64,000 nucleotides of DNA from a bacterium CG10_46_32 (GTDB lineage: Bacteria; Patescibacteriota; Patescibacteriia; UBA2169): NCBI GenBank assembly GCA_001889965.1, contig MOEI01000006.1:17494-81493 (forward strand), in the 5' to 3' direction. The notes below the pieces were generated by a model. The model was not told the origin of the DNA. It did not search any database and saw nothing but the letters and a program-made list of their open reading frames with translations. How positions within the stretch are numbered: the first letter of the stretch is position 1; each line of letters starts with the position of its first letter. The translations under genes were made by a program, and so were the position numbers. Below are positions 3,325 to 58,391 of this stretch, in pieces.

Positions 3325-3328
3325 GTAT

Positions 3329-6146: not shown

Positions 6147-6149
6147 AGT

Positions 6150-20362: not shown

Positions 20363-20371
20363 ATAGAAGAC

Positions 20372-21839: not shown

Positions 21840-21846
21840 GAGATAT

Positions 21847-26165: not shown

Positions 26166-26168
26166 TTT

Positions 26169-29013: not shown

Positions 29014-29017
29014 CCAT

Positions 29018-31140: not shown

Positions 31141-31141
31141 T

Positions 31142-34954: not shown

Positions 34955-34955
34955 T

Positions 34956-36014
34956 ATGAAATATATTACCATTAGAACTCCAAAAGCAGTGCGAAAAATC
35001 GGTCCACACGAACCTGTATTTATTATTGCTGAGCTTTCTGGAAATCATAACCAATCTTACGCCAAGGCTGAAAAATTAATTGATGCAGCGGCCAAGGCGG
35101 GTGTTGATGCCATAAAATTACAAACATACACAGCAGATACGTTAACTATTGATTCGGATAAAAAATATTTTTGCATCACTTCTGGTAAATGGAAAGGGCA
35201 GACGCTTTATCAGTTATATCAAAAGGCATACACCCCATGGGAGTGGCAGCCAAGACTCAAAAAGTATGCAGAAAAAAAGGGTTTGGTTTTATTCTCGACT
35301 CCTTTTGATGTGAGTGCAGTTGATTTTTTGGAAAAAATGCGCGTGTCACTTTATAAAGTTTCGTCGTTTGAGATTGGGGATATTCCATTGCTTAAAAGAA
35401 TCGGAACAACAAAAAAACCTGTTATTATTTCTCGTGGTATGGCTTCGGTTTCAGAAATTACGCTTGCTGTTAAAGCGCTTAAGGCGAGCGGCGCACCTCA
35501 GGTGGCGGTGCTGCACTGCATAAGTTCGTACCCAGCAGAACCAGAAGAAATGAACCTTGCAACCATTCCGGATATTACAAAAAAATTCAATGTTATTTCG
35601 GGGCTTTCAGATCATACGATTGGAACGAGCAGCGCGATTGCAGGTGTTGCTTTAGGTGCATCAATTATCGAAAAGCATATTACTCTCAAGCGGTCTGATG
35701 GAGGTCCTGATGCAGCATTTTCTCTTGAACCTCAAGAGTACACAGAATTAGTTGCCGCAATTCGGGATACGGAAAAAGCCATAGGATTACCATCGTACCA
35801 AATCGGAAAAAAAGAATCTCAAAATTTCGCATTTAGAAAATCAATATTTGTAATTAAAGATATCCCAAAAGGTTCTTTGTTTACTAAAGAAAATATAAAA
35901 ATAATTCGCCCGGGCCAGGGATTGCCTCCAAAGTATTGGGAGCGTATTTTAGGAAAGCAATCCAAGAGGAGTATAAATCGAGGCACTCCGCTTAATAGGC
36001 GCGATGTGGGATAG
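34956..36014 (+). CDS. N-acetylneuraminate synthase family (NeuB/PseI/LegI)
   Basis: PVFIIAELSGNHNQS...AGVDAIKLQTY...LSDHT motifs and a C-terminal SAF domain. ATG at 34956. Confidence 0.85.
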   Translation: MKYITIRTPKAVRKIGPHEPVFIIAELSGNHNQSYAKAEKLIDAAAKAGVDAIKLQTYTADTLTIDSDKKYFCITSGKWKGQTLYQLYQKAYTPWEWQPRLKKYAEKKGLVLFSTPFDVSAVDFLEKMRVSLYKVSSFEIGDIPLLKRIGTTKKPVIISRGMASVSEITLAVKALKASGAPQVAVLHCISSYPAEPEEMNLATIPDITKKFNVISGLSDHTIGTSSAIAGVALGASIIEKHITLKRSDGGPDAAFSLEPQEYTELVAAIRDTEKAIGLPSYQIGKKESQNFAFRKSIFVIKDIPKGSLFTKENIKIIRPGQGLPPKYWERILGKQSKRSINRGTPLNRRDVG

Positions 36015-36487
36015 TGCGCATGCAATATACTCAGCAACACAGTACCATTCGTCCTATAATGCCAGAAGACGCTAAGCGTGTATGGGAAATTCGCAATCAC
36101 CCATCTGCTCGCTCGCATTCGGGAAATCCGGAGGCTATTTCTTATCAGCAGCATGCATCTTGGTTTGCAAATAAGTATTTTAGCGGCCTGGACAATACAG
36201 CGTTTGTGCTCGTCGTTGATGCGGGGCAGGTTGTTGGATATTGTCGGTTTGATTGCAATAAAGAACAGGGCGGTTATATTGTTTCTATTGCTATCGATTC
36301 TGATTTTCAGGGCAAAGGCTTTGGGCATGCATTATTGCGTGGCGCGTTGGATCAATATGCGCAGGGAAAAGTGATTTTTGCAGAAATTCAGAAAGATAAC
36401 ATTGCTTCTGTTCATTTGTTTAAAAAAAATGGATTTTCTATAGAAAGTGAAGATGAAAAAAAATATTATCTTTTGTTGAGAATGTAG
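36014..36487 (+). CDS. GNAT N-acetyltransferase, PseH-like
   Basis: VWEIRNHPSARSHS (PseH-like) and the GNAT motif A QGKGFGHALL. Length is 157 aa. Confidence 0.6.
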   Translation: MRMQYTQQHSTIRPIMPEDAKRVWEIRNHPSARSHSGNPEAISYQQHASWFANKYFSGLDNTAFVLVVDAGQVVGYCRFDCNKEQGGYIVSIAIDSDFQGKGFGHALLRGALDQYAQGKVIFAEIQKDNIASVHLFKKNGFSIESEDEKKYYLLLRM

Positions 36488-36488
36488 T

Positions 36489-37901
36489 ATGTCTAAAGCG
36501 CAAAAAACAATCTTCATCGTCGTGACCCGCGGGTTTATTATCCGAAACATTCTGCGGTCTGGCACTCTTGCATTGCTTAAAAAAGCTGGTTGGCGCGTGG
36601 TGATATTTTTTGATGTCGCAGAAGTTCCTGCGCACTTGCGCCGTGAGTTTGAGGACGAGCAGGTGAGTGTGCACGGGATGCGCGTATCTGTTGCCCGGCC
36701 GCACCGATTATTTTTACGGCTGAGAAAGTATCTTCTCTCAACAAGCTCAACCAAGATTTTGGTGGATTTCCGACAAGGGAGCAAGGATAGACAAAAGTTC
36801 CGCGAAGGATTTTTACCTAAAAAATCTTCGCTTGCAAGCCAGACGCAAAAGCTAAGCATGTCTGTATTGAGCACCATCCCTTTACTTAAGCCTATATACC
36901 GATGGATTGAATATCATATGTTTTCCGAAAAAAATCCCGTGATCCAGCGTTATTTTGACGAATACCAGCCGAACGAAGTGTTTGGCACTTCGGTTGTTTC
37001 TTCTTTGGATATTGCCTTTATGAAAGAGGCTCGCCGCAGAAACATAGTTACCATCGCGATGCCAAAAACCTGGGATAATATTATGAACGGTTATTTCCGT
37101 TTTACCCCGGATTATTTTTTGGTGCATAACGAAATGGCACGTGGCTTAACAGCGCAGTATCAGCATATGCCAAAAGAAAAGATGTTTGTGGTTGGTATGC
37201 CGCAGTTTGACTGGTACCGCAAGGAGGGCGTTCTTAATTCGCGTGCGGAACATTGGAAGAGCAAGGGTCTAGATCCGAATCAAGCGGTCATCTTTTTTGG
37301 TTCAGCGGGTATTTGGGCGGCGCATGACCACGCTATTCCGGAATTAATTTACGGATGGATAGAGCACGGTGAGCTCGCAAAACCGTGCCAGTTATTTTTG
37401 CGTCCGCATTTTAGTAATGTACATGATGACATGTTTAAAAATCTTCGAGGCAAAAAAGGGATTGCTATTGATGATTATAAGATGGTGAATACGTTTAGTG
37501 ATAATTGGGATCCTACAGTTCAGGATACGATTGATTTTACTAATTCCGTTGTATATTGTGATATTATGATAAATATCGGTTCAACGCTTTCTCTGGACGC
37601 ATCCTGCGTTGATCGGCCCATATTAAATCCCGCATTCGGGTGCTCGTTTCAAGGGGGGGAAGATGTGACCTATCCGTACCAGTATGGGGCGGACCACTAT
37701 CAGTGGGTGCTTTCTGAGAACGCAACTAAGCTCTCTTTTAACCCAAAAGAGCTTAAGCAGCAACTGAATGAATATCTTGTGCATCCGGAAGAAGAACAAG
37801 AAGAACGAAAAAATCTTATTAACAAGCTTTGTTATCGCGTAGACGGGCTTGCATCACAGAGGATTGTTGATGCCATTAACAGCAGTGTACGTACTGCGTA
37901 A
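36489..37901 (+). CDS. GT-B-fold transferase with HP-like motif (TagF/CDP-glycerol glycerophosphotransferase-like or sialyl/CMP-sugar transferase-like); paralog of 47997-49400
   Basis: CQLFLRPHFSNVHDD and VGMPQFDWY are shared with the paralog. Length is 470 aa. Confidence 0.4.
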   Translation: MSKAQKTIFIVVTRGFIIRNILRSGTLALLKKAGWRVVIFFDVAEVPAHLRREFEDEQVSVHGMRVSVARPHRLFLRLRKYLLSTSSTKILVDFRQGSKDRQKFREGFLPKKSSLASQTQKLSMSVLSTIPLLKPIYRWIEYHMFSEKNPVIQRYFDEYQPNEVFGTSVVSSLDIAFMKEARRRNIVTIAMPKTWDNIMNGYFRFTPDYFLVHNEMARGLTAQYQHMPKEKMFVVGMPQFDWYRKEGVLNSRAEHWKSKGLDPNQAVIFFGSAGIWAAHDHAIPELIYGWIEHGELAKPCQLFLRPHFSNVHDDMFKNLRGKKGIAIDDYKMVNTFSDNWDPTVQDTIDFTNSVVYCDIMINIGSTLSLDASCVDRPILNPAFGCSFQGGEDVTYPYQYGADHYQWVLSENATKLSFNPKELKQQLNEYLVHPEEEQEERKNLINKLCYRVDGLASQRIVDAINSSVRTA

Positions 37902-38589
37902 TCATATATATAAGAAGAAAAATATTATAGCTATTATTCCGGCGCGGGGTGGATCCAAAACTATCCCCAATAAAAACCTGGCCCCACTCGGCGGCAAGCC
38001 ATTGATGAGTTACAGTATTGCGCAAGCGCAGCAGTCTCGTTATGTGGATATGATTGTTGTGTCGAGTGACAGCGAAGCTATTCTTGCGGAGGCAAAACAG
38101 CTCGGCGCAGAGGCTATTCGCAGGCCTAAGCAGATGAGTGGCGACACTTCCAAAATGGATCTTGCATTAAGGCATGCGTTGCTGCAGCTCGATTCCATTA
38201 AAGGCTATGTGCCGGATTATATTGTGCTTCTGCAACCCACGAGCCCGTTGCGGAGTGTGGCTACTATTGATCGCGCTATTGTCGCTTTTGTGGATAATGC
38301 AAAAAAATTCGATTCGCTTATTGGTTTGTGCGCAATAGAGTCCAAGATCGGGCACATTAAAAATGGCCGCTATATAGCACTCAATAAGATGAATATGCAG
38401 CGTCAGCAACTTAAGCATATGTACCAGGAGTGCGGCACTATTTTTGTGTTTAAGCCGAGTCGAATTTTAAAGAAGCAATCACTCTATGGCGCGCGCGTAA
38501 TGCCATTTATTGTTGAAAAGAGGCACGAAGCTTTAGATATTAATGACAGCCATGATATGAATATGGCGAATTATTTTTTAACCATATGA
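37849..38589 (+). CDS. Second acylneuraminate cytidylyltransferase (NeuA/LegF-like)
   Basis: IIAIIPARGGSKTIPNKN motif. The exact start is uncertain because the ORF's N-terminus overlaps the upstream gene by about 50 nt, and a later or non-ATG start is possible. Confidence 0.75.
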   Translation: MHHRGLLMPLTAVYVLRNHIYKKKNIIAIIPARGGSKTIPNKNLAPLGGKPLMSYSIAQAQQSRYVDMIVVSSDSEAILAEAKQLGAEAIRRPKQMSGDTSKMDLALRHALLQLDSIKGYVPDYIVLLQPTSPLRSVATIDRAIVAFVDNAKKFDSLIGLCAIESKIGHIKNGRYIALNKMNMQRQQLKHMYQECGTIFVFKPSRILKKQSLYGARVMPFIVEKRHEALDINDSHDMNMANYFLTI

Positions 38590-39620
38590 ATGAAATCAAT
38601 ATAGGTAGTAGAAAAATAGGGCCGCGCCATGCGCCGTTCGTTATTGCGGAGATCGGCATTAACCATGAGGGAAGCATGGCAAAAGCAAAGCGCATGATTC
38701 GCGATGCCGCAAAGGCGGGGGCGGAGTGCGTTAAATTCCAAGCGCACGTGATAAGTGATGAAATGGTTCCTGTCGCAAAAAAAGTCATCCCAGGAAATGC
38801 CAAGGAGTCCATTTGGGACATTATGTCGCGGTGCGCGTTTTCCGAAAAGCAAGATCATGAGCTTAAGGCATACACCGAAAAATTAGGCATGCTGTATCTT
38901 TCTACGCCGTTTTCGCGCGCAGGCGCAGATCAACTCCATAAGATGCAAGTGAAAGCCTATAAAATTGGTTCCGGTGAATGCAACAACTATCCGCTTATCG
39001 AACATATTGCACGGTTTAAAAAACCAGTCATCCTTTCCACAGGTATGAATGATATTGCAAGCGTAAAAAAGAGCGTGGCAATTTTACGCACACACAGTGT
39101 TCCGTTTGCACTTTTACATTGCACAAGTATGTACCCAACGCCGTACGACAAAGTGCGTCTTGGTGCGCTTGCGGATTTAGCGAAAGCGTTTCCAGATGCG
39201 GTTGTTGGACTTTCGGATCATTCGTTTGGTAACTATACGTCATTTGGCGCCATTCCTCTTGGCGCATCAATTTTAGAAAAACATTTTACGTCGTATAAAG
39301 AGTGGCCTGGCCCGGATGTGTCTATTTCTATTGATCCGGCAGAGCTTAAAGAATTAATACAGGGCTCTCGAGCTATTCATGCGGCTTTGGGCGGCAAAAA
39401 AGATATTCTAAAAGAGGAGCAGCCTACTATTAATTTTGCCTATGCATGCGTGGTAACAACCAAGCCCATTGCCAAAGGTGAAAAGTTTACTCAGGACAAC
39501 CTCTGGGTAAAGCGTCCGGGTACCGGGGAAATTAAGGCAATTGAGTATAAAAAAATTATTGGGAAAAAAGCAAAACGAGGTATTAAAGCCGATATGCAAC
39601 TTAAACGGAAGGATATATAG
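38586..39620 (+). CDS. Second N-acetylneuraminate synthase family protein (NeuB/LegI-like)
   Basis: PFVIAEIGINHEGS...AGAECVKFQAH...LSDHS and a C-terminal SAF domain. Confidence 0.85.
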   Translation: MNEINIGSRKIGPRHAPFVIAEIGINHEGSMAKAKRMIRDAAKAGAECVKFQAHVISDEMVPVAKKVIPGNAKESIWDIMSRCAFSEKQDHELKAYTEKLGMLYLSTPFSRAGADQLHKMQVKAYKIGSGECNNYPLIEHIARFKKPVILSTGMNDIASVKKSVAILRTHSVPFALLHCTSMYPTPYDKVRLGALADLAKAFPDAVVGLSDHSFGNYTSFGAIPLGASILEKHFTSYKEWPGPDVSISIDPAELKELIQGSRAIHAALGGKKDILKEEQPTINFAYACVVTTKPIAKGEKFTQDNLWVKRPGTGEIKAIEYKKIIGKKAKRGIKADMQLKRKDI

Positions 39621-39624
39621 TACT

Positions 39625-40782
39625 ATGTCAAATAAAAAGCGAACCGTTTTATTTATTAGCGAACGAAGGGCAGACTATAGTCGCTTAAAGCCCATTATGA
39701 AAGCCGTTCAAAAGAGCACAAAGCTTAATTTGAAGCTTGTGGTAACTGGCACGCACCTACTTAAGAATTTTGGAGAAACCAAGCGCGTTGTCGAGAAAGA
39801 TGGATTCTGGATAGATGCGAAAGTTCCTATGTTTAAACCTCGCGGAGCAGACGATGGGGCTGCTATGGTAGAGGCAATGGCGCGAGTACTTGGCGGCCTG
39901 CCAAAGGTGTACAAAAAACTCAAGCCAGACATTGTGTTCTGCGGATTTGATTTAGGTGCGCACCTTGCGGCTGCGATTACGGCAATGCACATGAATATCC
40001 ACGTGGCGCACATACAGGGCGGCGAACGTTCCGGCACTATAGATGAAGTGTTGCGTCATGCGTGCACTAAATTCTCACATATTCATTTTGTCGCAACCGA
40101 GAAAAGCCGAAAGCGTGTTATCAAGCTCGGAGAAGATTCGAAGTATGTATACAATGTAGGGAGCCCAAGTTTGGATACTATCAAATCTATATCTTATCCC
40201 AGTAAAAAAATTATATTTAAAAAATATCATCTTGATCCAGAAAAAAAACTTATTATTTTTCTGCAGCATCCAGTAACCACGGAAGTGGATGAGGTGGTTG
40301 TTCAGATACACCAGACCATAGACGCTGTGCATACTGTTAACCGAAAGTATGGAACTCAAGCGCTGGCCATTTACTCAAATAACGATGCCGGAGGCAAGCG
40401 CATTGTTGCATATCTCAAGAAATCGGGAATTGCAGTCCTGCCGCACGTGGTGTATGAAGATTTTTTGCGACTTTTAAAACATGCGAGCGTGCTGGTTGGA
40501 AATTCCTCAACAGGCATCCACGAGGCTCCTTCGTTTGGATTGCCAACTGTGAATGTTGGTACTCGGCAGCAATTTAGAGAACGCGGGAAAAATGTTATCG
40601 ATACGCCTAATAATAAAGGAAAAATCTTACAGGCAATTGAAAAATCATTATTTGACAAAAAGTATATAAAAATGGTAGAATCTGGTTCTAATCCGTACGA
40701 TAATGGAGATACCGCAAAACAAGTGGTTCACATTCTTGAAAGCGAAACACTGCCCTCAATTCAGAAAGTTATTACCTATTAA
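39625..40782 (+). CDS. UDP-N-acetylglucosamine 2-epimerase, hydrolysing type (NeuC/LegG-like)
   Basis: VLFISERRADYSRLKPI, HIQGGERSGTIDE and VGNSSTGIHEAP motifs. ATG at 39625. Confidence 0.8.
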   Translation: MSNKKRTVLFISERRADYSRLKPIMKAVQKSTKLNLKLVVTGTHLLKNFGETKRVVEKDGFWIDAKVPMFKPRGADDGAAMVEAMARVLGGLPKVYKKLKPDIVFCGFDLGAHLAAAITAMHMNIHVAHIQGGERSGTIDEVLRHACTKFSHIHFVATEKSRKRVIKLGEDSKYVYNVGSPSLDTIKSISYPSKKIIFKKYHLDPEKKLIIFLQHPVTTEVDEVVVQIHQTIDAVHTVNRKYGTQALAIYSNNDAGGKRIVAYLKKSGIAVLPHVVYEDFLRLLKHASVLVGNSSTGIHEAPSFGLPTVNVGTRQQFRERGKNVIDTPNNKGKILQAIEKSLFDKKYIKMVESGSNPYDNGDTAKQVVHILESETLPSIQKVITY

Positions 40783-40793
40783 TTACTACGCAT

Positions 40794-41792
40794 ATGCACG
40801 AGCAATTTAAAGACAAAGTTATTCTTATTACTGGAGGGACAGGAACTATTGGATCTGAATTAGTTCAGCAGCTTTTAAAATGCCACCCAAAACAGGTGCG
40901 TATTTTGTCTCGTGAAGAGGGAAAGCAGTATGAGCTTTTGGAGCGGCTTAAGTACCCTAAAAATTTACGGCTTTTAATTGGTGATATCCGAGATCGTGAC
41001 CGCATTGATTATGCGTTTAAAGACGTGGATATCGTGCTGCATACCGCAGCCATGAAGCAGGTTCCGCTCTGCGAATACAATCCGGCTGAGGCGGTAAAAA
41101 CAAATATTGTTGGCAGCCAAAATGTGATTGACGCAAGCCTCAAGAATCAAGTGGAAAAGGTTATTGCGATTTCCACAGACAAGGCAGTATATCCAACGAA
41201 CGTTATGGGAACTTCCAAGCTCATGATGGAAAAAATGTTTATTAACGCCAATTGGACATCTGGTAAAGCGGTAACCAAATTTGCATGTGTACGTTTCGGA
41301 AATGTGGCATGGGCGCGCGGTAGCGTGCTTCCGCTTTGGAAGAAGCAGGCTGAAAATGAAAGTCGCATTAATATTACTAATCCAAACATGACGCGTTTTA
41401 TGATGTCTATTGAGCAGGCAGTTAATCTTGTGCTGAAAGCCGTAGAGCTTGTGCAGGTTGGAGAAATTTTTGTTCTTAAAATGTCGTCCATCACAATTGG
41501 AGAGCTAGGAAATATGTTTACTGCAAAGTATTATCCGGATAAAAAAATTGCCATTTCAGTAAGCGGCGACCGCGTAGGGGATAAAATGCACGAAGAGTTG
41601 GTAGATGACAACGATCGGACAAGCTATATTCTTGAAGATAAAGATATGTATATTTTTGTTCCTCGTTTTTTAGAGCTTTACGGGGTTGAGCAAGATGTGC
41701 CACAGTATGCCGGATTTACAAAGATTGATACGATTGGGCGGTATTCATCCGATGAGCATATTAATTCAGAAAAAATTAAATCTATTGTGTAA
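40794..41792 (+). CDS. Second UDP-sugar 4,6-dehydratase (PseB/LegB-type short enzyme)
   Basis: ILITGGTGTIGSEL, MGTSK and about 332 aa. Paralog of 25170-26165. Confidence 0.7.
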   Translation: MHEQFKDKVILITGGTGTIGSELVQQLLKCHPKQVRILSREEGKQYELLERLKYPKNLRLLIGDIRDRDRIDYAFKDVDIVLHTAAMKQVPLCEYNPAEAVKTNIVGSQNVIDASLKNQVEKVIAISTDKAVYPTNVMGTSKLMMEKMFINANWTSGKAVTKFACVRFGNVAWARGSVLPLWKKQAENESRINITNPNMTRFMMSIEQAVNLVLKAVELVQVGEIFVLKMSSITIGELGNMFTAKYYPDKKIAISVSGDRVGDKMHEELVDDNDRTSYILEDKDMYIFVPRFLELYGVEQDVPQYAGFTKIDTIGRYSSDEHINSEKIKSIV

Positions 41793-41801
41793 GAGTTTTA
41801 T

Positions 41802-42842
41802 ATGGCAACACACAATGATCTGGCGCGCGCGTATCTCACGCTCGGGTACCATTATATTAGACAGCCGGCTCAAAAAGATCCGTTTCCGCGGGTTAAGGGA
41901 AGCACGTGGAGTGATTTTGGAGCGCATCTGCGGATGATACAAAAATATTTTAATATCATCAGTCTAGATGATGTGTTGCGTTTTCATAGAAATGAGATTG
42001 AATTGTCGCTGACTAAGCCAAATATACTGCTAACTTTTGATGATGGTCTGGAGGAACATTGTAGGGTTGCTCAGATATTGGCTGAGTGTAAAATTCAAGC
42101 GGTGTTTTTTATTCCAACGTGTCTTTTGACAGATAGAGTTCCTATAAATACAACCATTCTGCATTATTCACTAGCTCGGTATGGATTAACTATTTTTTTG
42201 GATGCGTTTCATAAAGCTTTAATAGCGCACGGACTTAAGAACGAAGACTATCCGCTGTATTTTGCTAAAGGAATAGATAATCCTCCCGACAAAATTGTAG
42301 AGATAAAAAAAACCTTTAAGTATGGATTAAGCTACGAGAATTCGCAGGGTATTATTATGCATATTTATCAAGCTTTATTGCTCAAAGACTATCCGAATGC
42401 ATTTGAACTCATGCATATTGACGAAGACAAAGCGAAGAAGATTGTGGATTTTGGTCACAATATAGGAGCGCATACCCATTCACATATATCAGTAGGATCT
42501 ACTGATTTATCAGATGACGCTTTTCAGAAAGAAATTATTCATTCCAAAAATATTTTAGAAAGCAAGCTTGGCGTAAAAGTTGAAAGTATCTCTTATCCTT
42601 TTGGAGAAAAACGAGATTATGACTCTATTGAAGAAAAAATAAGAAAAATGGGGACCTATCAAGCAGGTTTTACGGCCGAGCCGTCTCTTAACACAAAAGA
42701 AACATCACCATTAAAGATTGGGCGATATCTACCTCTTAAAGCTGATACTTCTGATATTTTATTTGATAAATTAAAATCATTACAGATGGGTAAGGAGATA
42801 CTATGGAAATATTGGGAGTTGGCACGGACATCGAAATCATAA
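41802..42842 (+). CDS. Polysaccharide deacetylase (NodB homology domain)
   Basis: ILLTFDDGLEEH motif. Confidence 0.65.
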   Translation: MATHNDLARAYLTLGYHYIRQPAQKDPFPRVKGSTWSDFGAHLRMIQKYFNIISLDDVLRFHRNEIELSLTKPNILLTFDDGLEEHCRVAQILAECKIQAVFFIPTCLLTDRVPINTTILHYSLARYGLTIFLDAFHKALIAHGLKNEDYPLYFAKGIDNPPDKIVEIKKTFKYGLSYENSQGIIMHIYQALLLKDYPNAFELMHIDEDKAKKIVDFGHNIGAHTHSHISVGSTDLSDDAFQKEIIHSKNILESKLGVKVESISYPFGEKRDYDSIEEKIRKMGTYQAGFTAEPSLNTKETSPLKIGRYLPLKADTSDILFDKLKSLQMGKEILWKYWELARTSKS

Positions 42843-46848: not shown

Positions 46849-47997
46849 ATGCAAAAAAAGAAGATTATTTTTTTAACGGGCACACGAGCCGATTTTGGAA
46901 AAATAAAGCCGTTGATTGATGTGACGATGCGTGCAAATATATTTGAAGTGCATATTTTTGCAACAGGCATGCACTTGAGCAAAAAATACGGATACACAAT
47001 GAACGAAATAAAAAAGTGCGGCTTTGAGAATATCTATCCGTTTGATAATGACGTTGAAAGCGGAAGCCTGAGCAGCGTCCTTGCAAACACGATTAATGGT
47101 TTTGGCGATTATGTACAAGCGTTGCAGCCAAATTTGATTATTGTTCATGGGGATCGAGTTGAAGCGCTCGCCGGCGCATTAGTCGGCTCCCTGAATAATA
47201 TTATTGTTGCACACGTGGAAGGCGGAGAGGTTTCCGGAACCATTGATGAACATATACGGCATGCAATAAGCAAAATGTCACATATTCATTTTGTGGCAAA
47301 TGCGGAAGCCCAGAAACGCCTCGTGCAGATGGGGGAATCAGATGAGGTGATTCATGTTATCGGTTCACCGGATCTAGACATAATGACTTCTTCGGATTTG
47401 CCCAGTATGGAGGAAGCCAAGCAGAAATACAGCATACCTTTTGGTCGCTATGCTATTTTACTCTACCATCCTGTAACTTCGGAGTTGGATAAACTTCAGG
47501 TGCATGCTGATGACTTGGTTTCTGAAGTGTTTGATTCAGGGCTCAATTATATCGTTGTATATCCGAATAGCGATCCGGGTTCGGATTGCATTCTTAAAAG
47601 CTATCAGGAACACTTAGAGGTGAATGATCGTTTTCGAGTTATCCCTTCGGTTCGGTTTGAGCATTTTTTGACGCTCATCAAGCATGCTAAATTTATTATT
47701 GGAAACTCAAGCGTTGGCATTCGGGAGGCGCCTTTTTACGGAGTTCCCAGTATTAATATCGGTACGCGTCAGCATCGACGGCTTAAGCCTGGCACTGCCA
47801 AGAGTATTGTGGATGTGCCAGATGATCGGAGTGAAATAGCGCGCGCTATCCGCGATGCAGCTAAGATCGAAAAACGGTATGAAAAGAATCAGTACTTTGG
47901 AGACGGTAACAGTGCCAAGCGTTTTTATAGCATTATCACTCGGGATGATTTTTGGAACACCAACGCCCAGAAATTTTTTGTTGATTTATACGAGTAA
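46849..47997 (+). CDS. Third UDP-GlcNAc 2-epimerase homologue (NeuC-like, hydrolysing type)
   Basis: IIFLTGTRADFGKIKPL, HVEGGEVSGTIDE and IGNSSVGIREAP motifs. ATG at 46849. Confidence 0.75.
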   Translation: MQKKKIIFLTGTRADFGKIKPLIDVTMRANIFEVHIFATGMHLSKKYGYTMNEIKKCGFENIYPFDNDVESGSLSSVLANTINGFGDYVQALQPNLIIVHGDRVEALAGALVGSLNNIIVAHVEGGEVSGTIDEHIRHAISKMSHIHFVANAEAQKRLVQMGESDEVIHVIGSPDLDIMTSSDLPSMEEAKQKYSIPFGRYAILLYHPVTSELDKLQVHADDLVSEVFDSGLNYIVVYPNSDPGSDCILKSYQEHLEVNDRFRVIPSVRFEHFLTLIKHAKFIIGNSSVGIREAPFYGVPSINIGTRQHRRLKPGTAKSIVDVPDDRSEIARAIRDAAKIEKRYEKNQYFGDGNSAKRFYSIITRDDFWNTNAQKFFVDLYE

Positions 47998-49400
47998 TGA
48001 GAGGCATGACTATTTTTATTACCATTGCCAAAGGATTAATTGCTCGCAACCTCCTGCAGAATGATTTTTATGCACTCGTAAAAAAACATTTCGACAAAGT
48101 GGTTGTATTGAGCACTGCGTGGAGCGATGAACGATTTGTTACTGAGTTTGGCGGCAGTAATGTGGTATTTTTGCCACTACCTCAGGCGCCGGATACGTTT
48201 GCGAGTAAGCTTATTGGCAACCTAAGCCGGTATATTATCTATAACGGCAGGACCGAAATGATGAGTGCGTATAATTTTGATCGCGGCAAGGATGTGCCTG
48301 TTATATGGTGGTACCCAAAATACCTCATTCTTAAGGCGGTGTTTGTACCGCTTTCAAAAATTACTTCTTTGCGAAAATTATTGCGCAAGATTGATGTTGC
48401 ATTTTTACATAAAAAGACCGTGGCAAAGTACCGCGCGCTTATTAAAGAGCATGCTCCAAATGTGGTATTTGTTTCTAATATAGTGGATAATACCGAAGCT
48501 GCTTTGGTAAAAGCAGCACGCCGAGAAAGGGTTCCCAGCGTTGCTATGGTTAAGAGCTGGGATAATTTTTCCAAGCAATATTTTGGCGCATCCGCAGATA
48601 CGTTTGCCGTGTGGAATCAGTTTATGGCGGAACAGGCGCATGCGCTGCAGGATTATAAAAAGGAAGCTATTGCTATTGTGGGCGTTCCTCAGTTTGATTA
48701 CTATGCAGACCATTTCTGTATTGTGCCACGAGAGGTGTTTTGTAAGCGCGCGGGTTTGGATCCGAATAAAAAGATTATTTTTTTCGGGTCAGAGGGCAAG
48801 CTTATGCCTACAGATCCAAATATCGTAGAGGTGATGCGTGATTTTATAAAAAATAACGAACTTGCCGAGGAGTGCCAGGTGTTTGTGCGGCCGCATTTTG
48901 CCTACACACATGACCGCGAAAAATTTAAAGATTTTTTTAGTTCAAAAGAAGTGGTGGTAGATGCATCTCATAAATCCTCTTCGGGTTTTTCGGATGGCTG
49001 GGATTATTCTAGAGAACAAATGGAGTACTTCCTCAATGCCATTCATCATGCTGCTGTGGTTGTCAATACTGCGTCTACGCTTACGGCAGATGCCTTAGCG
49101 CTCAATCGACCTGTTATTTTAATTGCGTTTGAGGGATACGAGAAAAAAACAACTTACGAATCTGTTGCCGGGTGGTATACAAGCGATTATTACCAAAAAA
49201 TTGTTTCGTTTCATGCCGCGCTCATGGCAGATAGCGTTGCGCGCTTGCGTTCTGCGATTAATGAGTGTCTTGCCGATCCCGACATACTCTCCCCGGCGCG
49301 CAAAAAGTTTAAAGATTATTTTTGTTTTAAGGTGGATGGCGGCGCAGGCAAACGTTTATTTAGTGTAGTATATCAAGAAACAAATAGTATTAAAAATTAA
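47997..49400 (+). CDS. GT-B-fold HP-motif transferase, paralog of 36489-37901
   Basis: CQVFVRPHFAYTHDRE and VGVPQFDYY. Length is 467 aa. Confidence 0.4.
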   Translation: MRGMTIFITIAKGLIARNLLQNDFYALVKKHFDKVVVLSTAWSDERFVTEFGGSNVVFLPLPQAPDTFASKLIGNLSRYIIYNGRTEMMSAYNFDRGKDVPVIWWYPKYLILKAVFVPLSKITSLRKLLRKIDVAFLHKKTVAKYRALIKEHAPNVVFVSNIVDNTEAALVKAARRERVPSVAMVKSWDNFSKQYFGASADTFAVWNQFMAEQAHALQDYKKEAIAIVGVPQFDYYADHFCIVPREVFCKRAGLDPNKKIIFFGSEGKLMPTDPNIVEVMRDFIKNNELAEECQVFVRPHFAYTHDREKFKDFFSSKEVVVDASHKSSSGFSDGWDYSREQMEYFLNAIHHAAVVVNTASTLTADALALNRPVILIAFEGYEKKTTYESVAGWYTSDYYQKIVSFHAALMADSVARLRSAINECLADPDILSPARKKFKDYFCFKVDGGAGKRLFSVVYQETNSIKN

Positions 49401-53283: not shown

Positions 53284-54510
53284 ATGGAAAAAGCTAGAGA
53301 AAAAAGACCGATATTTATTGTCGGATGCACTCGCAGCGGCACCAAGCTCGTATCCCGCATTGTGGGCGGGCATCTTGATAATTTTTTAATTACCGAGCAC
53401 CGCGAAAAATTCCACATTCCCGAGGACCGTTCCGGCGTGTGCGAAGAGCACTTGTGGTTTAATAATTTTGAATTTAAGCATTGGGGAAAAAACGGGGATC
53501 CTTTAGTACGGACACCTATCTACAATAAAGCAGATATTGCCCGCATGAAAGAGATATTATTGTCTCTTTCTGGAGCCAAGCGGTTGGTGGTTAAAAATCC
53601 GCAGGATATTTTACGAATCCGTTTTATTAAAAAAATGTTCCCAGATGCCTTGTTTGTTTTTTGCGTGCGGAACCCATGGCATGGTTTGCAGTCTCGAATT
53701 ATTGGTGGCGAGGCAAAGTATTTAATCCCATCGGAGAAGAATTTTGAATTGCCGGATGATCTGTTGCTTAAGTCCGTGTATTCATGGAAAGAGAGTATTG
53801 ATATTTACCAGAACGAGCATGATGAAAACTGGTGCGCAATCCGGTATGAGGATGTTGTGTTTAGCACCAAGGATACACTTGCTAAGTTGTTTGAGTTTTT
53901 AGGAATGGATTCGCATTCTGAATACTTCAATAGGGCGTGCTCCTTGCCGCGGGATTTAGAACATCAGTATTATCCGGTTAAAAAAGCATTTAAGAAGAGT
54001 GCATTTAAAAAAGAAATAATGGATATTGTTCATGACGGATGTGCCGTATTTCCGTATGAGACATCTATTGATTTGGTTCCCGGAAGCGCGTGGCACTACT
54101 ATTTATTAGAGAAGGATATCATTAACATCAAGTGGCTTAAAGCGCGTTTTATTGGAATCACTAAGTGCATGTCTAAAAGCATTTTGCGGATTGTTTTTTA
54201 CGTAGTGGGTGGTGTCCGTAAAACCATAGTGAGCCACATTATGTTTGCCGCTCTTTCCGAAGGGGCAAGCGCGTTTGTTTCCACGGAGGATGCCAAAATC
54301 GCGGATGTTGCTGGGCATAGTAAAAAAGATGAAACAGCATCATTTATTGTTTCGCAAATGCAGTATCAGCGCCTTAGGCATTTTAATCGTGTGATTGTTT
54401 TAGATAGCACAGGATCTTCGTGGCTATTGCTTAAGAATATTGACTTTTTTCCGGAAAAACAGTATAATTATATACTTAATGGAAAGGTAGAATACATAAA
54501 ACATGCTTGA
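53284..54510 (+). CDS. Sulfotransferase-domain protein (PAPS-dependent) with a C-terminal extension
   Basis: 5'-PSB-like PIFIVGCTRSGTKLV and 3'-PB-like FVFCVRNPWHGLQS. Confidence 0.5.
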   Translation: MEKAREKRPIFIVGCTRSGTKLVSRIVGGHLDNFLITEHREKFHIPEDRSGVCEEHLWFNNFEFKHWGKNGDPLVRTPIYNKADIARMKEILLSLSGAKRLVVKNPQDILRIRFIKKMFPDALFVFCVRNPWHGLQSRIIGGEAKYLIPSEKNFELPDDLLLKSVYSWKESIDIYQNEHDENWCAIRYEDVVFSTKDTLAKLFEFLGMDSHSEYFNRACSLPRDLEHQYYPVKKAFKKSAFKKEIMDIVHDGCAVFPYETSIDLVPGSAWHYYLLEKDIINIKWLKARFIGITKCMSKSILRIVFYVVGGVRKTIVSHIMFAALSEGASAFVSTEDAKIADVAGHSKKDETASFIVSQMQYQRLRHFNRVIVLDSTGSSWLLLKNIDFFPEKQYNYILNGKVEYIKHA

Positions 54511-57295
54511 TATGGCGCAAAAAACTAAGCTCATTGTGACGCTCGGCCCGGCAACGCGGACTCTTGAAGATTTGTGTCTTTTAAAAGATCGAGACGTTGA
54601 TTTTGTGCGCATCAACATGTCGCATTCCACTTTAGAAGATTTAGAATATTTTATTGCGCTTGCAAAAAAGGTTGGCATTCCGTTTGTGCTGGATACCGAA
54701 GGCTCGCAGATACGCACTGGAGAGCTAGCTGAAAACTCTGCACACATTAAAGAGGGCGCATCTGTAAAAATTTATCGCGATGCGATTATTGGAGATAGTG
54801 AGCGCATCAACCTGCGCCCTTCAATTGCGGTCGAGCAGCTTGTTTCCGGGGACATTATTCACATTGATTTTAATTCTCTCATTTTGCGCGTTTCCGAAAC
54901 TGCGCTGCTCGCAACCGAAGGCTATATCATGGCAACCGCAATTACGAGCGGCACGCTCGGTCGAAATAAGGCGGTGGTGGTTGATAGCGCTTTGGAAACT
55001 ATGTTCCGCTTGCCAGTTTTGTCCGAAAAAGATTACCAAGCAATTGAGATCGGATTACGGGAGGGCGTTGAATATATTGCCGCCTCGTTTATGCGCAACG
55101 AGCAGTTTGTAGACGAAGTACGTAAGGCAACAAACAACAAAATGAAAATTATTTCCAAAATAGAGTGCAAAGACGCGCTCCAGAATCTCGAACCTATTAT
55201 CAATGCATCTGATTTTATTCTTATTGATCGTGGAGATTTAAGCAAAGAGATAGCAATCGAAAAAATCCCTTTGGTACAAAAAACCATTATGAGCCTTGCA
55301 CGCAAACAGCAGAAGGGTGTGTTTGTCGCCACAAACCTTTTGGAGAGCATGATAGAGAAAAAACAGCCCACGCGTGCAGAAGCGCACGATGTGATTGCAA
55401 CTATTTTGGATGGAGCGTATGGATTGGCTTTATCCGCAGAAACCGCCATCGGGAAAAACCCAATTGCGTGTGTGAATATGATGAACCGCTTGTGCCGCCA
55501 AACAGCGCTTGTGCACGAGGATACTCATTACCAAAAAGCAAATGACGGAATTGCGGAGGACATGTTGGATATGAACTATCTGCTTTCGGATGACGACTCT
55601 TCGATTCTTATTAAGCCTCATGGCGGAACATTAGTTGATTGCGTTTTGCGGGAGGTGCCTGATGCTAGTTATCTGGAGTCGCTCCCTCGCATTGTGCTGG
55701 ACCAAGAGCGGCAAATGGATGTTGAGCAGATTGCAATTGGAACATTTAGCCCGATTGAGGGGTTTATGGGCAAAAAGGATTTTGACGGCGTGCTCAATGA
55801 TATGCGCCTTGTGAACGGTTCGGCGTGGACTATTCCTATTATATTAGATGTTTCAGAACATACAGCCAATAACCTTAAAGAGGGTTCAGACGTGGTTTTG
55901 TGTGATAGCGAAGGCCCAATGGCTATTTTACATTTGGAGGAAAAGTTTAATTTTAATAAGAGTGAAACTAACCAAAAACTGTATGGCACCGAGAGCATAG
56001 AACATCCAGGTGTGCGCTGGATTAATTCTTTGAACCCAATTCTACTTGGCGGAAAAATCAGCCTTATCCGCAGACGCGTGTCCGAACAGAAGGAGTACGA
56101 ACTTACTCCGCGCCAGGTGCGCAGGATGTTCGAAGAGCGCGGTTGGTCGCGTGTGGTTGGATTCCATACGCGCAATGTAATTCACCGCAGCCATGAATTC
56201 ATTCAATTAGAGGCTATGCGTCGTGCGAACGCGGACGGCTTGTTTATTCATCCGGTTATCGGTAAAAAGAAGCCTGGAGATTTTCATGCTAAGTACATTA
56301 TTGGCGCGTACGAGCAGATGGTAAAGCATTTTTATCCGCGGGACAAAGTGGTATTTGCGACATATGCCACGTTTTCCCGTTATGCGGGTCCGCGCGAGGC
56401 TATTTTTACGGCGCTCTGCCGAAAGAATTTCGGATGCAGCCATTTTGTTGTGGGCCGTGATCATACTGGAGTCGGGGATTTTTACTATCCTAAAGCATCC
56501 CATGAAATTTTTAATCAATTCAAAGATTTAGGTATTGAGCCGATTCGGTTTGATCAAGTATTCTATTCAAAAAAACTCAATGCGCATGTGCATGAAACTG
56601 ATGATACAGAACATTCCGAGGAAGAAAAAATGCATATCAGCGGCACGCAAGCCAGGCAGATGATAGAGCAGGGTCAGCAGCCGCCAGAATGGTTTATGCG
56701 TCCGGAGATTTCCGCAATGATTCTTGAGGCCATCGCGTCCGGAGAAGAGGTGTTTGTGTCGGAACAGGCAGCGCCGCAGCGTGGAGTTGTGCTGTGGTTT
56801 ACGGGTCTTTCTGGAAGCGGCAAGACTACTATTGCAAGTAGGATTGCGTGTACTTTGGGAGAACGTGGCGCGCGTGTTACCATGCTCGACGGGGATACGG
56901 TTCGCGAACAGTTTAAAGTCCAACTTGGGTTCTCCAGAGAAGACATAAGAGAAAATAACCGCCGTATCGCCGAACTCGCAAAGGAAGAGTCAGCGCGCTT
57001 TAATGTGGTGATTGTGTCTATTATTTCTCCATATGCCGAGGACCGAACAATGGCGCGTTCCATTATTGGCAAGGGATTTGTTGAGGTATTTATCAACGCG
57101 TCTCTTGAGGCGTGTATGGCTCGGGATACTAAAGGATTATATGGTCGCGCTCAACGGGGCGAGATGGACAACCTTATCGGATTCAGTCCGTCCAACCCAT
57201 ACGAGGCGCCGATTAATCCGGATATAGAGATAAAAACGGACGAACTATCTATAGAGCAGGCTATCATTCAAATTATCAATAGCTTACCAAACTAA
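54503..57295 (+). CDS. Tri-domain fusion: pyruvate-kinase-like barrel domain + sulfate adenylyltransferase (ATP sulfurylase) + adenylylsulfate (APS) kinase
   Basis: PK-like region (aa 1-330): KLIVTLGPAT, RINMSHS, LDTEGSQIRTG, ISKIECKD, IDRGDLSKEI, ATNLLESM...PTRAE, LSAETAIGKNP. ATP sulfurylase region: PUA-like IKPHGGTLVD...GTFSPIEGFMG and catalytic GFHTRNVIHRSHE. APS kinase region: VLWFTGLSGSGKTTIA. Confidence 0.75.
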   Translation: MLDMAQKTKLIVTLGPATRTLEDLCLLKDRDVDFVRINMSHSTLEDLEYFIALAKKVGIPFVLDTEGSQIRTGELAENSAHIKEGASVKIYRDAIIGDSERINLRPSIAVEQLVSGDIIHIDFNSLILRVSETALLATEGYIMATAITSGTLGRNKAVVVDSALETMFRLPVLSEKDYQAIEIGLREGVEYIAASFMRNEQFVDEVRKATNNKMKIISKIECKDALQNLEPIINASDFILIDRGDLSKEIAIEKIPLVQKTIMSLARKQQKGVFVATNLLESMIEKKQPTRAEAHDVIATILDGAYGLALSAETAIGKNPIACVNMMNRLCRQTALVHEDTHYQKANDGIAEDMLDMNYLLSDDDSSILIKPHGGTLVDCVLREVPDASYLESLPRIVLDQERQMDVEQIAIGTFSPIEGFMGKKDFDGVLNDMRLVNGSAWTIPIILDVSEHTANNLKEGSDVVLCDSEGPMAILHLEEKFNFNKSETNQKLYGTESIEHPGVRWINSLNPILLGGKISLIRRRVSEQKEYELTPRQVRRMFEERGWSRVVGFHTRNVIHRSHEFIQLEAMRRANADGLFIHPVIGKKKPGDFHAKYIIGAYEQMVKHFYPRDKVVFATYATFSRYAGPREAIFTALCRKNFGCSHFVVGRDHTGVGDFYYPKASHEIFNQFKDLGIEPIRFDQVFYSKKLNAHVHETDDTEHSEEEKMHISGTQARQMIEQGQQPPEWFMRPEISAMILEAIASGEEVFVSEQAAPQRGVVLWFTGLSGSGKTTIASRIACTLGERGARVTMLDGDTVREQFKVQLGFSREDIRENNRRIAELAKEESARFNVVIVSIISPYAEDRTMARSIIGKGFVEVFINASLEACMARDTKGLYGRAQRGEMDNLIGFSPSNPYEAPINPDIEIKTDELSIEQAIIQIINSLPN

Positions 57296-57304
57296 AATAA
57301 AAAT

Positions 57305-57604
57305 ATGAATATTGATATTACCCAGATCCTCGGTTGGATAGCCACGTTTCTTTTTTCAGTAATGCTCATACCACAGATGATTAAAACTATTAAAGTCAAA
57401 GACACAAGTGGGGTGAGTTTGTTTTTGTTTATAATTTACTTCGTTGCAAATATTGTGGCACTCGCATATGCTTTATTAATCGACCAAATGCCGCTCATCA
57501 TAAAATATTCAATAGCAATCGGAACTGCGGCAGCATACTTGTCCATATTTGCGTATTATTATCAAAAGCAGCAAAAGAAAAGCCATGAATCTTCCGAAAA
57601 ATGA
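57305..57604 (+). CDS. PQ-loop / SemiSWEET-like 3-TM membrane protein
   Basis: 99 aa, three TM helices, LIPQMIKTIK PQ motif after TM1. Confidence 0.45.
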   Translation: MNIDITQILGWIATFLFSVMLIPQMIKTIKVKDTSGVSLFLFIIYFVANIVALAYALLIDQMPLIIKYSIAIGTAAAYLSIFAYYYQKQQKKSHESSEK

Positions 57605-58391
57605 TTTTTTACCCGAGCTTTTTTTGGCAGTAGAAGCCGCGAAAACAGCCGGGGACGCAGTGCTTGTAATTTACAAAACGGATTTTGACGTGGCCGAAAA
57701 AGAGCCGGGCCAACTCATAACGCTTGCGGATACAGATGCTGACGCGGTTATTCATGCGATGCTTAGAAAAACAGGGTATCCCATTCTTTCGGAAGAGAGC
57801 GCGGACGATTTTGTTCGTTTGCAAGCGGAGCGCGTGTGGATTATTGATCCCTTGGACGGAACTGCGGATTTTGTGGAAAAGACCGGCGAATTTTCTATAA
57901 TGATTGCGCTCATAGAAAATCATGAGCCAATTATAGGAGTAGTGTACGCTCCAGCAACTGACACTCTGTATGTTGCAGAAAAAGGGAAGGGTGCCTTCTG
58001 TTGCACTCATGGCGGATGGAATCAGATTTATGTGAGCAACACCGCGCAGATGCCATCTGCAAAAGCAGTCACCAGCAGGCATCATTTTACCGAAGAAGAG
58101 CATAATATACTTGATGCACTTGAGGTTGGAGAATTTATTCAAAAAGGGAGCGCGGGATTGAAAATTGCAGACATAGCGCAAGGGAGTGCAGATTTTTATT
58201 TTACACTGACTAACCAAATTAAGCAGTGGGATACTGCAGCTGGTTATTGCATTCTTGCAGAGGCAGGGGGCTGTATGACTGACATGCAAGGCAATGCGCT
58301 TATATACAATACCGAGGACGTCTACCATAAAAATGGAATTTTAGTTACCAATAGTGTACTACATAGCGTTGTTTTGCAATCATATGCCTGA
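57585..58391 (+). CDS. cysQ: Inositol monophosphatase family; probable 3'(2'),5'-bisphosphate nucleotidase (CysQ-like PAP phosphatase)
   Basis: LSEES...WIIDPLDGTADFV metal-binding motifs and the WDTAAG motif. ATG at 57585. Confidence 0.6.
   Translation: MNLPKNDFLPELFLAVEAAKTAGDAVLVIYKTDFDVAEKEPGQLITLADTDADAVIHAMLRKTGYPILSEESADDFVRLQAERVWIIDPLDGTADFVEKTGEFSIMIALIENHEPIIGVVYAPATDTLYVAEKGKGAFCCTHGGWNQIYVSNTAQMPSAKAVTSRHHFTEEEHNILDALEVGEFIQKGSAGLKIADIAQGSADFYFTLTNQIKQWDTAAGYCILAEAGGCMTDMQGNALIYNTEDVYHKNGILVTNSVLHSVVLQSYA

Follow-up and report, generated by a model that had tools for sequence, protein, structure and literature searches.

A pyruvate kinase domain joined to sulfate-activating enzymes in a predicted glycan sulfation cassette of the uncultured bacterium CG10_46_32

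Some bacteria set aside a dedicated sulfate activation system for a sulfotransferase (ST) that modifies a surface or secreted molecule, as in NodPQ/NodH of Sinorhizobium, RaxPQ/RaxST of Xanthomonas and CysDNC-Stf0-CysQ of mycobacteria. The sulfurylase of NodPQ-type systems is the GTPase-coupled CysD/CysN enzyme, with GTP hydrolysis serving as the pull, and CysQ controls the level of 3'-phosphoadenosine 5'-phosphate (PAP). We analyzed a 64-kb stretch of contig MOEI01000006.1 (hereafter ‘the window’) from bacterium CG10_46_32, an uncultured groundwater organism. At 53.3-60.3 kb, all on the + strand, it carries a cassette of five co-directional genes encoding an ST, a fusion of pyruvate kinase (PK), ATP sulfurylase (ATPS) and the kinase of adenosine 5'-phosphosulfate (APS kinase, APSK), a PQ-loop membrane protein, a CysQ-type PAP phosphatase and an acetyl-CoA synthetase of the AMP-forming type (Acs). 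Dedicated sulfation cassettes are already known, and the Sat-CysC fusion, the CysQ and the ST found here are ordinary members of their families; what is new is the PK domain, together with a clade of PKs that lack the C-terminal domain (C-domain) and are tied to sulfate activation. Judged from sequence and gene context, the cassette is likely a dedicated cytoplasmic sulfation module within a glycan island, in which the PK would recycle ADP at the expense of phosphoenolpyruvate (PEP).

As in the NodPQ/NodH-type systems, sulfate activation at this locus is linked to an ST outside the cys regulon (the genes adjoin in the window and lie within 2 kb of each other in 24 of 45 related loci). Unlike those systems, the cassette combines a Sat-type sulfurylase with a PK, so that PEP would supply the pull, and there is no PAPS_reduct/GTP_EFTU pair in the window. 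Residues 365-930 of the fusion align end to end with the SAT/APS kinase of Aquifex aeolicus (2gks, the top match among solved structures; 3e-104), with the same ATPS-APSK order and the same catalytic motifs; the window protein differs from it by an extra 345-residue N-terminal PK, and reaches 449.3 bits against NF004040 (cut-off 669). The metazoan PAPSS1/2 proteins, which make 3'-phosphoadenosine 5'-phosphosulfate (PAPS), also hold ATPS and APSK on one chain, but in the reversed order (APSK then ATPS).

Two further systems are close in logic. PAPS synthesis in vitro with PK and PEP (PMC9885120; An et al. 2017 cited therein) combines the same four activities with the same rationale of ADP removal and ATP regeneration, but as a mixture of separate enzymes, whereas here they form one natural polypeptide or are encoded by adjacent genes. 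Stramenopiles and haptophytes have ATPS-pyrophosphatase fusions (PMC2275785), in which a by-product-removing partner likewise pulls the unfavorable sulfurylase equilibrium; those fusions are eukaryotic and assimilatory, remove pyrophosphate (PPi) and contain no PK, whereas ADP would be removed here. Our literature search found no description of a PK-sulfurylase fusion or of sulfation in the candidate phyla radiation (CPR). A preprint on a Legionellales symbiont was considered as a description of the fusion and rejected, as the terms occur there only separately.

The fusion protein and its pyruvate kinase subfamily

The first-pass annotation described the second open reading frame (ORF) of the cassette as a fused ATPS/APSK that makes PAPS. 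Both domains are present, but the protein is tri-functional rather than bi-functional, with PK, ATPS and APSK following one another on a single chain of 930 amino acids (aa); PK activity is predicted from its motifs. The PK domain matches PF00224 at residues 6-324 (1e-63, 215.7 bits) and TIGR01064 at residues 6-345 (positions 1-346 of 476), where its 276.2 bits fall below the cut-off of 306.4. The C-terminal allosteric and tetramer-forming domain (PF02887, PK_C) has no match in the fusion, and an acidic linker (residues ~346-369) follows the PK domain. Like canonical PKs (PykF/PykA), the domain comprises the A and B domains with all catalytic residues; unlike them, it has no C-domain and carries distinct signature motifs (DT[EQ]G[AS]Q, DRGDLS[KR][EQ] and ATN[LF]LE).

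Identity to solved PKs is 32-39%, and alignment with the enzymes of M. tuberculosis (5wrp), Geobacillus (2e28) and E. coli (PykF) recovers the motifs RxNxSH, DTxGxxIR, KIE, RGDL, ATxxLESM and PTRAE. Among 121 fusion homologues (51-100% identity), R36, N38, S40, H41, D64, T65, R71, K156, K219, E221, D245, T277 and E281 show no or almost no variation, which argues that selection maintains catalysis by this domain. Residue 117 (rabbit numbering) sets the K+ dependence of PKs and is Glu or Lys in known enzymes; the equivalent position in the fusion subfamily is Gln. The ATPS portion matches PUA_2 (PF14306, 1e-44) and PF01747 (4e-78) and exceeds the cut-off of sopT (TIGR00339; 364.3 vs. 322.95 bits). 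It has the motifs FHTRNVIHRSHE and GRDHTG, and both HRSH and GRDHTG are invariant in the 121 sequences. The APSK portion matches PF01583 (1e-49) and apsK (TIGR00455; 185.9 bits, cut-off 138.7), and its P-loop (GLSGSGKTT), LDGD/DGD and ISPY motifs are conserved in all triple fusions.

The best 120 homologues all carry PF00224 and are either triple fusions of ~930 aa or PK-ATPS proteins of ~750 aa. A scan of metagenome contigs with the subfamily PK motifs [VI]ATN[LF]LE[ST]M and DRGDLSKE yielded at least 572 confirmed contigs. Three architectures occur among 80 loci: PK-ATPS-APSK, PK-ATPS, and a stand-alone PK of 335-352 aa (11 loci, marine). The gene directly downstream of the stand-alone PK encodes APSK in 9 loci with flanking sequence, and an APSK gene adjoins many of the PK-ATPS loci too. 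No C-domain-less PK stood alone in a glycolytic context among the loci examined.

In a search of 50%-identity cluster representatives covering 1.84 billion sequences, ~135 of the best 150 matches have lengths typical of the subfamily (~330-360, ~650-790 or ~900-930 aa), and 112 of those ~135 have the ATN signature, most of them with other signature motifs as well. Canonical PKs of ~470 aa, recognizable by their ATQ/ARGDLG/DTKGPE motifs, begin only below the subfamily members in score. There is no sharp score gap between the two groups, and the clean split is given by signature motifs and length alone.

Hosts named in the records include many CPR/Patescibacteria groups, Woesearchaeota, Nanoarchaeota and Omnitrophota, as well as marine lineages. 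A plasmid search recovered PK-ATPS proteins (726/736 aa) in two cultured rhizobia, Sinorhizobium chiapasense S24 (L102; plasmid pA, NZ_CP144206.1, 1392845-1413595) and Ensifer adhaerens CTYH.Ch1 (L103). The PK-ATPS gene of S. chiapasense is followed by an in-frame APSK ORF at a place where the PLSDB gene table has no annotation, and its flanks hold genes for a LuxR regulator, a Wzy_C protein, a 287-aa P-loop-like protein, a Na+/H+-exchanger-family protein, PqqD and NTP_transf_5. L083 and L091 likewise carry Na_H_Exchanger genes beside the PK gene. A tblastn search of phage records did not find the PK fusion, giving only partial, canonical-PK-like matches.

Some host names and contexts deserve separate mention. 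Three GTDB representative metagenome-assembled genomes (L005, L007 and L008), titled ‘uncultured Gammaproteobacteria bacterium’, encode PK fusions that are 71-81% identical, and equally close homologues are named Parcubacteria or Patescibacteria in NCBI. NCBI itself lists the source organism of the window (taxid 1911907) under unclassified Bacteria; a place within the CPR is likely. In the Woesearchaeota loci L017 and L018, the genes around PK-ATPS-APSK include three for proteins of the alkaline-phosphatase superfamily (Sulfatase/Phosphodiest/SGSH_C), and no recognizable classical ST or CysQ was found near it.

Naming of the proteins is uneven. The window sequence is also public as JGI Ga0066639_10000049 (82 kb), and its fusion protein is 100% identical to database protein P0001. 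Several of the PK fusions are named ‘pyruvate kinase’ by JGI, NCBI names them ‘sulfate adenylyltransferase’, and the NCBI record of the window labels both the ST and CysQ ‘hypothetical protein’.

Linkage and partner genes of the cassette

Linkage was assessed in 86 non-redundant loci, of which 45 have at least 5 kb and 30 at least 12 kb of flanking sequence. ATPS is fused or adjacent to PK in 43 of the 45 loci and APSK is present in 31, while an ST, detected with an iterated hidden Markov model (HMM), occurs in 26, in 24 of them no more than 2 kb from the PK gene. CysQ was found in nine of the 45 loci and the PQ-loop gene in six, and 15 of the 30 loci with longer flanks contain nonulosonic-acid genes. 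A Pfam scan of 230 unlabelled neighbors returned mainly glycan families (methyltransferases, short-chain dehydrogenase/reductase [SDR] epimerases, glycosyltransferases [GT] of the GT2/GT4 type, Wzx, DegT and Bac_transf), together with alkaline-phosphatase-superfamily proteins and five TauE/SafE permeases. The arrangement of ST, sulfate activation and CysQ recurs in many lineages, and the grouping of the cassette genes is not due to chance.

The most syntenic locus (L015; 78% identity, on a 444-kb contig) encodes a BFO_1060-like GT, ST, PK-ATPS, APSK, PQ-loop protein, CysQ, an epimerase and Acs. Its separate APSK gene lies directly downstream of PK-ATPS, and the triple fusion of the window is therefore best described as a PK-ATPS joined to the neighboring APSK. 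Fusions of other kinds also occur: L045 and L077 encode APSK-CysQ proteins of 440 and 456 aa, and L054 a CysQ-APSK protein of 444 aa, so that both orders are represented. In five loci, marine and other (L078, L080, L085, L093 and L096), a TauE/SafE (TSUP) anion permease gene precedes the PK gene by 12-77 nt, in the order TauE-PK-APSK; ATPS is fused to PK in L085 and was not detected in the available sequence of the other four.

The first-pass annotation had recognized four adjacent genes of the cassette, for a sulfotransferase, the PAPS synthase, a PQ-loop protein and CysQ, and these are indeed co-directional and tightly packed within the glycan island. Family HMM searches bear out its reading of the first ORF, which, judged from its motifs and predicted fold, is a true PAPS-type ST. 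Residues 9-218 match Sulfotransfer_3 (PF13469; 4e-23, 83.2 bits, cut-off 27) and Sulfotransfer_1 (PF00685; 3e-8, 33.7 bits, cut-off 22), and the catalytic domain spans residues ~9-270. The 5'-phosphosulfate-binding motif (5'-PSB; GCTRSGTKL, 14-22) and the 3'-phosphate-binding motif (3'-PB; RNPWHGLQS, 129-137) are both present and align with those of the CurM ST. Among homologues R17, G19, R129 and P131 are 90-100% conserved and K104 is invariant; E38/H39 is the candidate base. An AlphaFold model (mean confidence, pLDDT, 91.9) resembles the TPST, Stf and HS 3-OST folds, consistent with a sulfotransferase fold. At its C-terminus the protein has an additional domain of ~125 aa (residues ~283-408) that only the 408-aa subfamily shares. 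The ST shows no transmembrane (TM) anchor (maximum hydropathy 1.41) and no signal peptide, and sulfation would thus be cytoplasmic.

Directly upstream of the ST in the window are genes for an RfbH-like DegT aminotransferase, two SDRs and a small GT2. Its neighbor in relatives is NeuB (L001) or a BFO_1060-like transferase (L015), and in the P0022 locus the ST gene lies beside a 2-hydroxyacid dehydrogenase gene that follows NeuB/NeuC/CMP-transferase genes. From this gene context, our best guess is that the acceptor is a sugar of the island glycan, possibly a nonulosonic-acid unit.

CysQ-like PAP phosphatase, also named in the first-pass annotation, is the family that fits the fourth gene best. 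The protein matches PF00459 (Inositol_P; 2e-56), and TIGR01331 (CysQ) is its best NCBIfam family, although at 193.7 bits it stays below the cut-off of 228.8 (HisN, 129; SuhB, 90). Its best match in the Protein Data Bank (PDB) is Bacteroides CysQ (3b8b, 5e-38), compared to 9e-27 for the best inositol monophosphatase, and it has the metal/substrate motifs DPLDGT (88-93) and WDTAA (215-219). The CysQ gene directly follows the PK fusion in L001, L004, L005, L007, L008, L015, L019 and L031.

The Acs gene, whose start overlaps CysQ by 8 nt (58384-58391), encodes a protein above the cut-offs of NF001208 (880.3 vs. 657 bits) and TIGR02188 (857.2 vs. 725 bits). It is probably a lineage-specific member of the cassette unit: Acs comes after CysQ in L015 and L019 as well as in the window, and in L019 (Ga0074195_1000091, 12786-15452) the two form an in-frame CysQ-Acs fusion of 888 aa, directly after ST and PK-ATPS-APSK. 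AMP-forming Acs can run in the ATP-forming direction from AMP and PPi (PMC4992975). Taken with the CysQ-Acs fusion, this reversibility suggests that Acs may consume the AMP released by CysQ and the PPi released by the sulfurylase; more simply, it could provide the acetyl-CoA with which sugars are acetylated.

The PQ-loop protein matches PF04193 (2.5e-12, 46.8 bits, cut-off 22), in line with the first-pass annotation, and forms a three-TM unit. It resembles the SemiSWEETs in length (~90-100 aa), in its three TM helices, PQ motif and PQ-loop/MtN3_slv Pfam match, and in its alignment over 79-81 residues to the SemiSWEETs 4qnc and 4x5m; against SemiSWEET_2 (NF037968) it reaches 41.4 bits (cut-off 80). 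The sugar pocket of LbSemiSWEET consists of Trp48 (TM2), Asn64 (TM3) and Thr13 (TM1) (PMC5972207). In contrast, the pocket of the window protein has Ala52, Tyr68 and Phe17 in place of Trp, Asn and Thr, each invariant in 78 homologues, with an invariant Lys67 in TM3 beside the replaced residues; the gene context, sulfate activation and glycan islands, also sets it apart from the SemiSWEETs.

The PQ-loop gene lies within 1.2 kb of the PK gene in 9 of the 86 loci, often between PK-ATPS and APSK, as in L034, L044 and L050. Among four look-ups that started from PQ-loop homologues, two led to sulfate-activation genes, with the PQ-loop gene between the PK fusion and ST in L101 and beside APSK in L100; a third (L104) has the gene just behind that of a PMT_2/ArnT-like transferase in a glycan island that holds no sulfur genes, and the fourth (L099) is in an unrelated context.

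The glycan island

The whole window is a single + strand glycan island (>60 kb), and the next 10 kb upstream contain only more glycan genes. Two full nonulosonic-acid gene sets lie within 25170-42842, each with its own NeuB and CMP-transferase; the sets also include three Epimerase_2 proteins, two PseB/LegB-like dehydratases, DegT aminotransferases and a GNAT. Two WbuX amidotransferases, with a HisH/HisF-like pair, imply an acetamidino-type modification. The island further holds many GT2/GT4 genes, methyltransferases, a carbamoyltransferase and an ABC exporter. Genes for a CotH kinase/beta-helix protein (891 aa), a VTC-domain protein (267 aa) and a DUF4956 protein (226 aa) stand in a row at 17687-21839, followed by the ABC exporter (21784-23640), and two CotH genes also neighbor PK loci elsewhere. 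Neither cysD, cysN, cysH, cysK nor sulfite reductase genes were found in the 64-kb window or the 10 kb upstream, and the window contains no sulfate transporter of the SulP, CysPTWA or CysZ type.

Two relatives differ in this respect. L001 (1.03-Mb contig, ENA ERZ26692762) encodes at 3048-7077 a CysH of 219 aa (NF002537; 180 bits, cut-off 154), CysD, CysN and an SDR of 383 aa. Its cysH/cysD/cysN genes lie 4-7 kb upstream of the PK fusion, just before NeuB, ST, APSK, the PK fusion and CysQ. One possibility is that this cysH set supplies sulfite for a sulfonated (sulfoquinovose-type) sugar. L015 carries cysDN plus cysC, additional to the PK system and inside the glycan island.

The five cassette genes are separated by +1, +9, -20 and -8 nt, in order, and their coordinates are given in the table together with those of other island features. 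The promoter-like site listed there is within the 3' end of the ST gene, ~35 nt ahead of the start of the fusion, and is the top match in 12.5 kb. Promoter-like sites across the region are rarer than in shuffled sequence (18 vs. 28.9); the promoter/terminator scan gave no excess over shuffled sequence, and the tRNA scan found no tRNA genes.

Table. Features of the cassette and of the surrounding glycan island, in window coordinates.
Feature	Position	Strand	Basis
Sulfotransferase (ST), 408 aa	53284-54510	+	Sulfotransfer_3 / Sulfotransfer_1 Pfam matches
PK-ATP sulfurylase-APS kinase fusion, 930 aa (start 54503) or 927 aa (JGI call, start 54512)	54503 or 54512 to 57295	+	
PK catalytic domain, residues 6-345	54518-55537	+	PF00224, TIGR01064
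ATP sulfurylase (PUA_2, residues 370-523; catalytic, 531-742)	55610-56728	+	PF14306, PF01747
APS kinase domain, residues 760-911	56780-57235	+	PF01583, TIGR00455
PQ-loop / SemiSWEET-fold membrane protein, 99 aa, 3 TM helices	57305-57604	+	PF04193
CysQ-type PAP phosphatase, 268 aa (longest ORF 280 aa, from TTG 57549)	57585-58391	+	PF00459
Acetyl-CoA synthetase (Acs) of the AMP-forming type, 622 aa	58384-60252	+	NF001208, TIGR02188
Promoter-like TTGACT-17-TATAAT, 11/12 consensus matches	54440-54468	+	consensus match alone
Two WbuX amidotransferases with HisH/HisF-like pair	27275-31140	+	
CMP-transferases	34259-34954 and 37849-38589	+	
NeuB	34896-36014 and 38586-39620	+	
BFO_1060-like putative glycosyltransferases, ~470 aa, one after each nonulosonic set	36489-37901 and 47997-49400	+	

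Proposed mechanism, alternatives and implications

In the mechanism that we propose, the ATPS domain would convert ATP and sulfate to APS and PPi, the APSK domain would use a second ATP to convert APS to PAPS and ADP, and the fused, unregulated PK domain would immediately convert the ADP, with PEP, to ATP and pyruvate. The net of these three steps would be sulfate + ATP + PEP -> PAPS + PPi + pyruvate. The ST would transfer the sulfate from PAPS to the hydroxyl group of an acceptor, most likely an island-glycan sugar and plausibly one containing a nonulosonic acid, giving the sulfated acceptor and PAP, and CysQ would convert the inhibitory PAP to AMP and inorganic phosphate (Pi). The exergonic PK step would help to pull the very unfavorable sulfurylase equilibrium, and the removal of ADP would relieve the ADP/APS dead-end inhibition of APSK.

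With human PAPSS1 in vitro, PAPS was ‘practically missing’ unless a PK/PEP system removed ADP (PMC9885120), and both a dead-end E-ADP-APS complex and the binding of ADP to the sulfurylase are documented (PMC3734648). The pairing of the stand-alone PK with APSK, the sole ADP-producing step, fits a role in ADP recycling, and the missing allosteric C-domain suits an enzyme meant to be active whenever ADP appears.

Several observations weigh against this proposal. There is no pyrophosphatase in the cassette, and the available sequence of 19 of the 45 loci contains no recognizable ST. Relatives L001 and L015 carry cysDN in the same island and L001 also cysH, as might be expected if the fusion served assimilation, feeding PAPS to a CysH and a sulfite reductase encoded elsewhere, with CysQ as a housekeeping enzyme and the ST as an unrelated neighbor. 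CysQ and Sat/CysC are classical cys-regulon functions, and this would also account for cysH with cysD and cysN near the PK fusion in L001 and for cysDN with cysC in L015. However, the assimilatory genes, sir included, are missing from the window and the 10 kb upstream, almost every locus has its PK-ATPS gene in a glycan island and more than half of the 45 have an ST close by, and the extra cys genes of L001 and L015 lie inside the glycan island, where they duplicate sulfate activation, which suggests specialization. We consider assimilation very improbable; the contention of the first-pass annotation that the genes serve sulfation stands on the recurrent grouping of ST, sulfate activation and CysQ and on the missing cysD/N/H and sulfite reductase in the window, and is weakened by the cysDN of these two relatives. 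Substitutions near the PK active site (DTEGSQIR for DTKGPEIR, ATN for ATQ, DRGDLSK for ARGDLGV) raise the question whether the PK-like domain regenerates ATP at all, or is instead a scaffold or oligomerization module, a PEP-sensing regulator or an enzyme with a changed substrate. These substitutions are invariant in the subfamily and stand beside the catalytic motifs, with Gln at rabbit position 117 among them; the domain also scores below the TIGR01064 cut-off and lacks the C-domain, which in canonical PKs forms half of the tetramer interfaces and the allosteric site. On the other hand, all residues for PEP/Mg2+ binding and for phosphoryl and proton transfer are invariant in the 121 sequences and the B lid keeps its Lys/Arg, which is unexpected for a scaffold, and the stand-alone PK is paired specifically with the ADP-producing APSK. 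A role other than ATP regeneration appears unlikely.

The identity of the acceptor and the role of the PQ-loop protein are less constrained. The top structural matches of the ST are protein-tyrosine sulfotransferases (TPSTs), and the target could be a protein tyrosine, as for RaxST and the TPSTs, or a lipid or small metabolite. TPST-like matches are, however, the generic best ones for the Sulfotransfer_3 fold, and the ST gene belongs to an unbroken series of sugar-modifying genes that all point the same way and, in relatives, stands beside NeuB, CMP-transferase or BFO_1060-like glycosyltransferase genes; a non-glycan target is in our view rather doubtful, though less so than the two alternatives above. 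For the PQ-loop protein, which the first-pass annotation counted as part of the module, the gene is present here and is an accessory one across the related loci. It has close to an even chance of acting outside sulfation chemistry, as a SemiSWEET-type sugar transporter or as a polyprenyl-phosphate-sugar flippase (MPDU1-/GtrA-like; MPDU1 is a member of the PQ-loop family), which would agree with its occurrence in only six of the 45 loci and with the contexts of L104 and L099, where a sulfate link is absent. Against this, the gene is interleaved among the PAPS genes in three loci and placed between the PK fusion and ST in L101, none of the three sugar-binding residues (Trp, Asn and Thr) is kept and TM3 has an invariant Lys, and marine loci have a TauE/SafE anion permease gene immediately upstream of the PK gene. 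The window has no other sulfate transporter. On these grounds we tentatively propose, at somewhat less than even odds, that the PQ-loop protein is an importer of the sulfate anion; a flippase for lipid-linked sugars is the main competing reading.

The ADP-recycling sulfation module can be extended to a self-sufficient, adenylate-neutral form, which as a whole we regard as speculative and unlikely. Sulfate would be imported by the PQ-loop protein, ADP recycled by the PK, and PPi and AMP used by a reversed Acs (cf. Syntrophus Acs1), which would convert AMP, PPi and acetyl-CoA to ATP, acetate and CoA; the ST would dock on the synthase through its C-terminal domain, taken to be ATP-sulfurylase-like (PUA-like). 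Overall, sulfate, acceptor, PEP and acetyl-CoA would be turned into sulfated acceptor, pyruvate, acetate, CoA and Pi, and the product would be a sulfated nonulosonic-acid surface glycan of ultra-small episymbiotic bacteria and archaea.

If the proposed ADP recycling is correct, the fusion would be a natural counterpart of the PK and PEP that biochemists add by hand for PAPS synthesis, and a third way to drive sulfate activation, besides the hydrolysis of GTP by CysN and of PPi by a fused pyrophosphatase. A single compact protein that makes PAPS and recycles its own ATP would be directly useful for the enzymatic sulfation of heparin, chondroitin and drugs. The presence of the PK-ATPS/APSK pair in cultured rhizobia makes the hypothesis genetically testable, and the PQ-loop subfamily is a candidate for a new substrate class within the SemiSWEET fold. 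Labels such as ‘pyruvate kinase’ or ‘sulfate adenylyltransferase’ may lead to false calls of glycolysis or sulfur assimilation in the reduced genomes of CPR bacteria and DPANN archaea. It would also follow from the proposal that CPR/Patescibacteria, DPANN archaea and Omnitrophota, host-attached organisms whose surface chemistry is barely explored, bear sulfated glycans on their surfaces.

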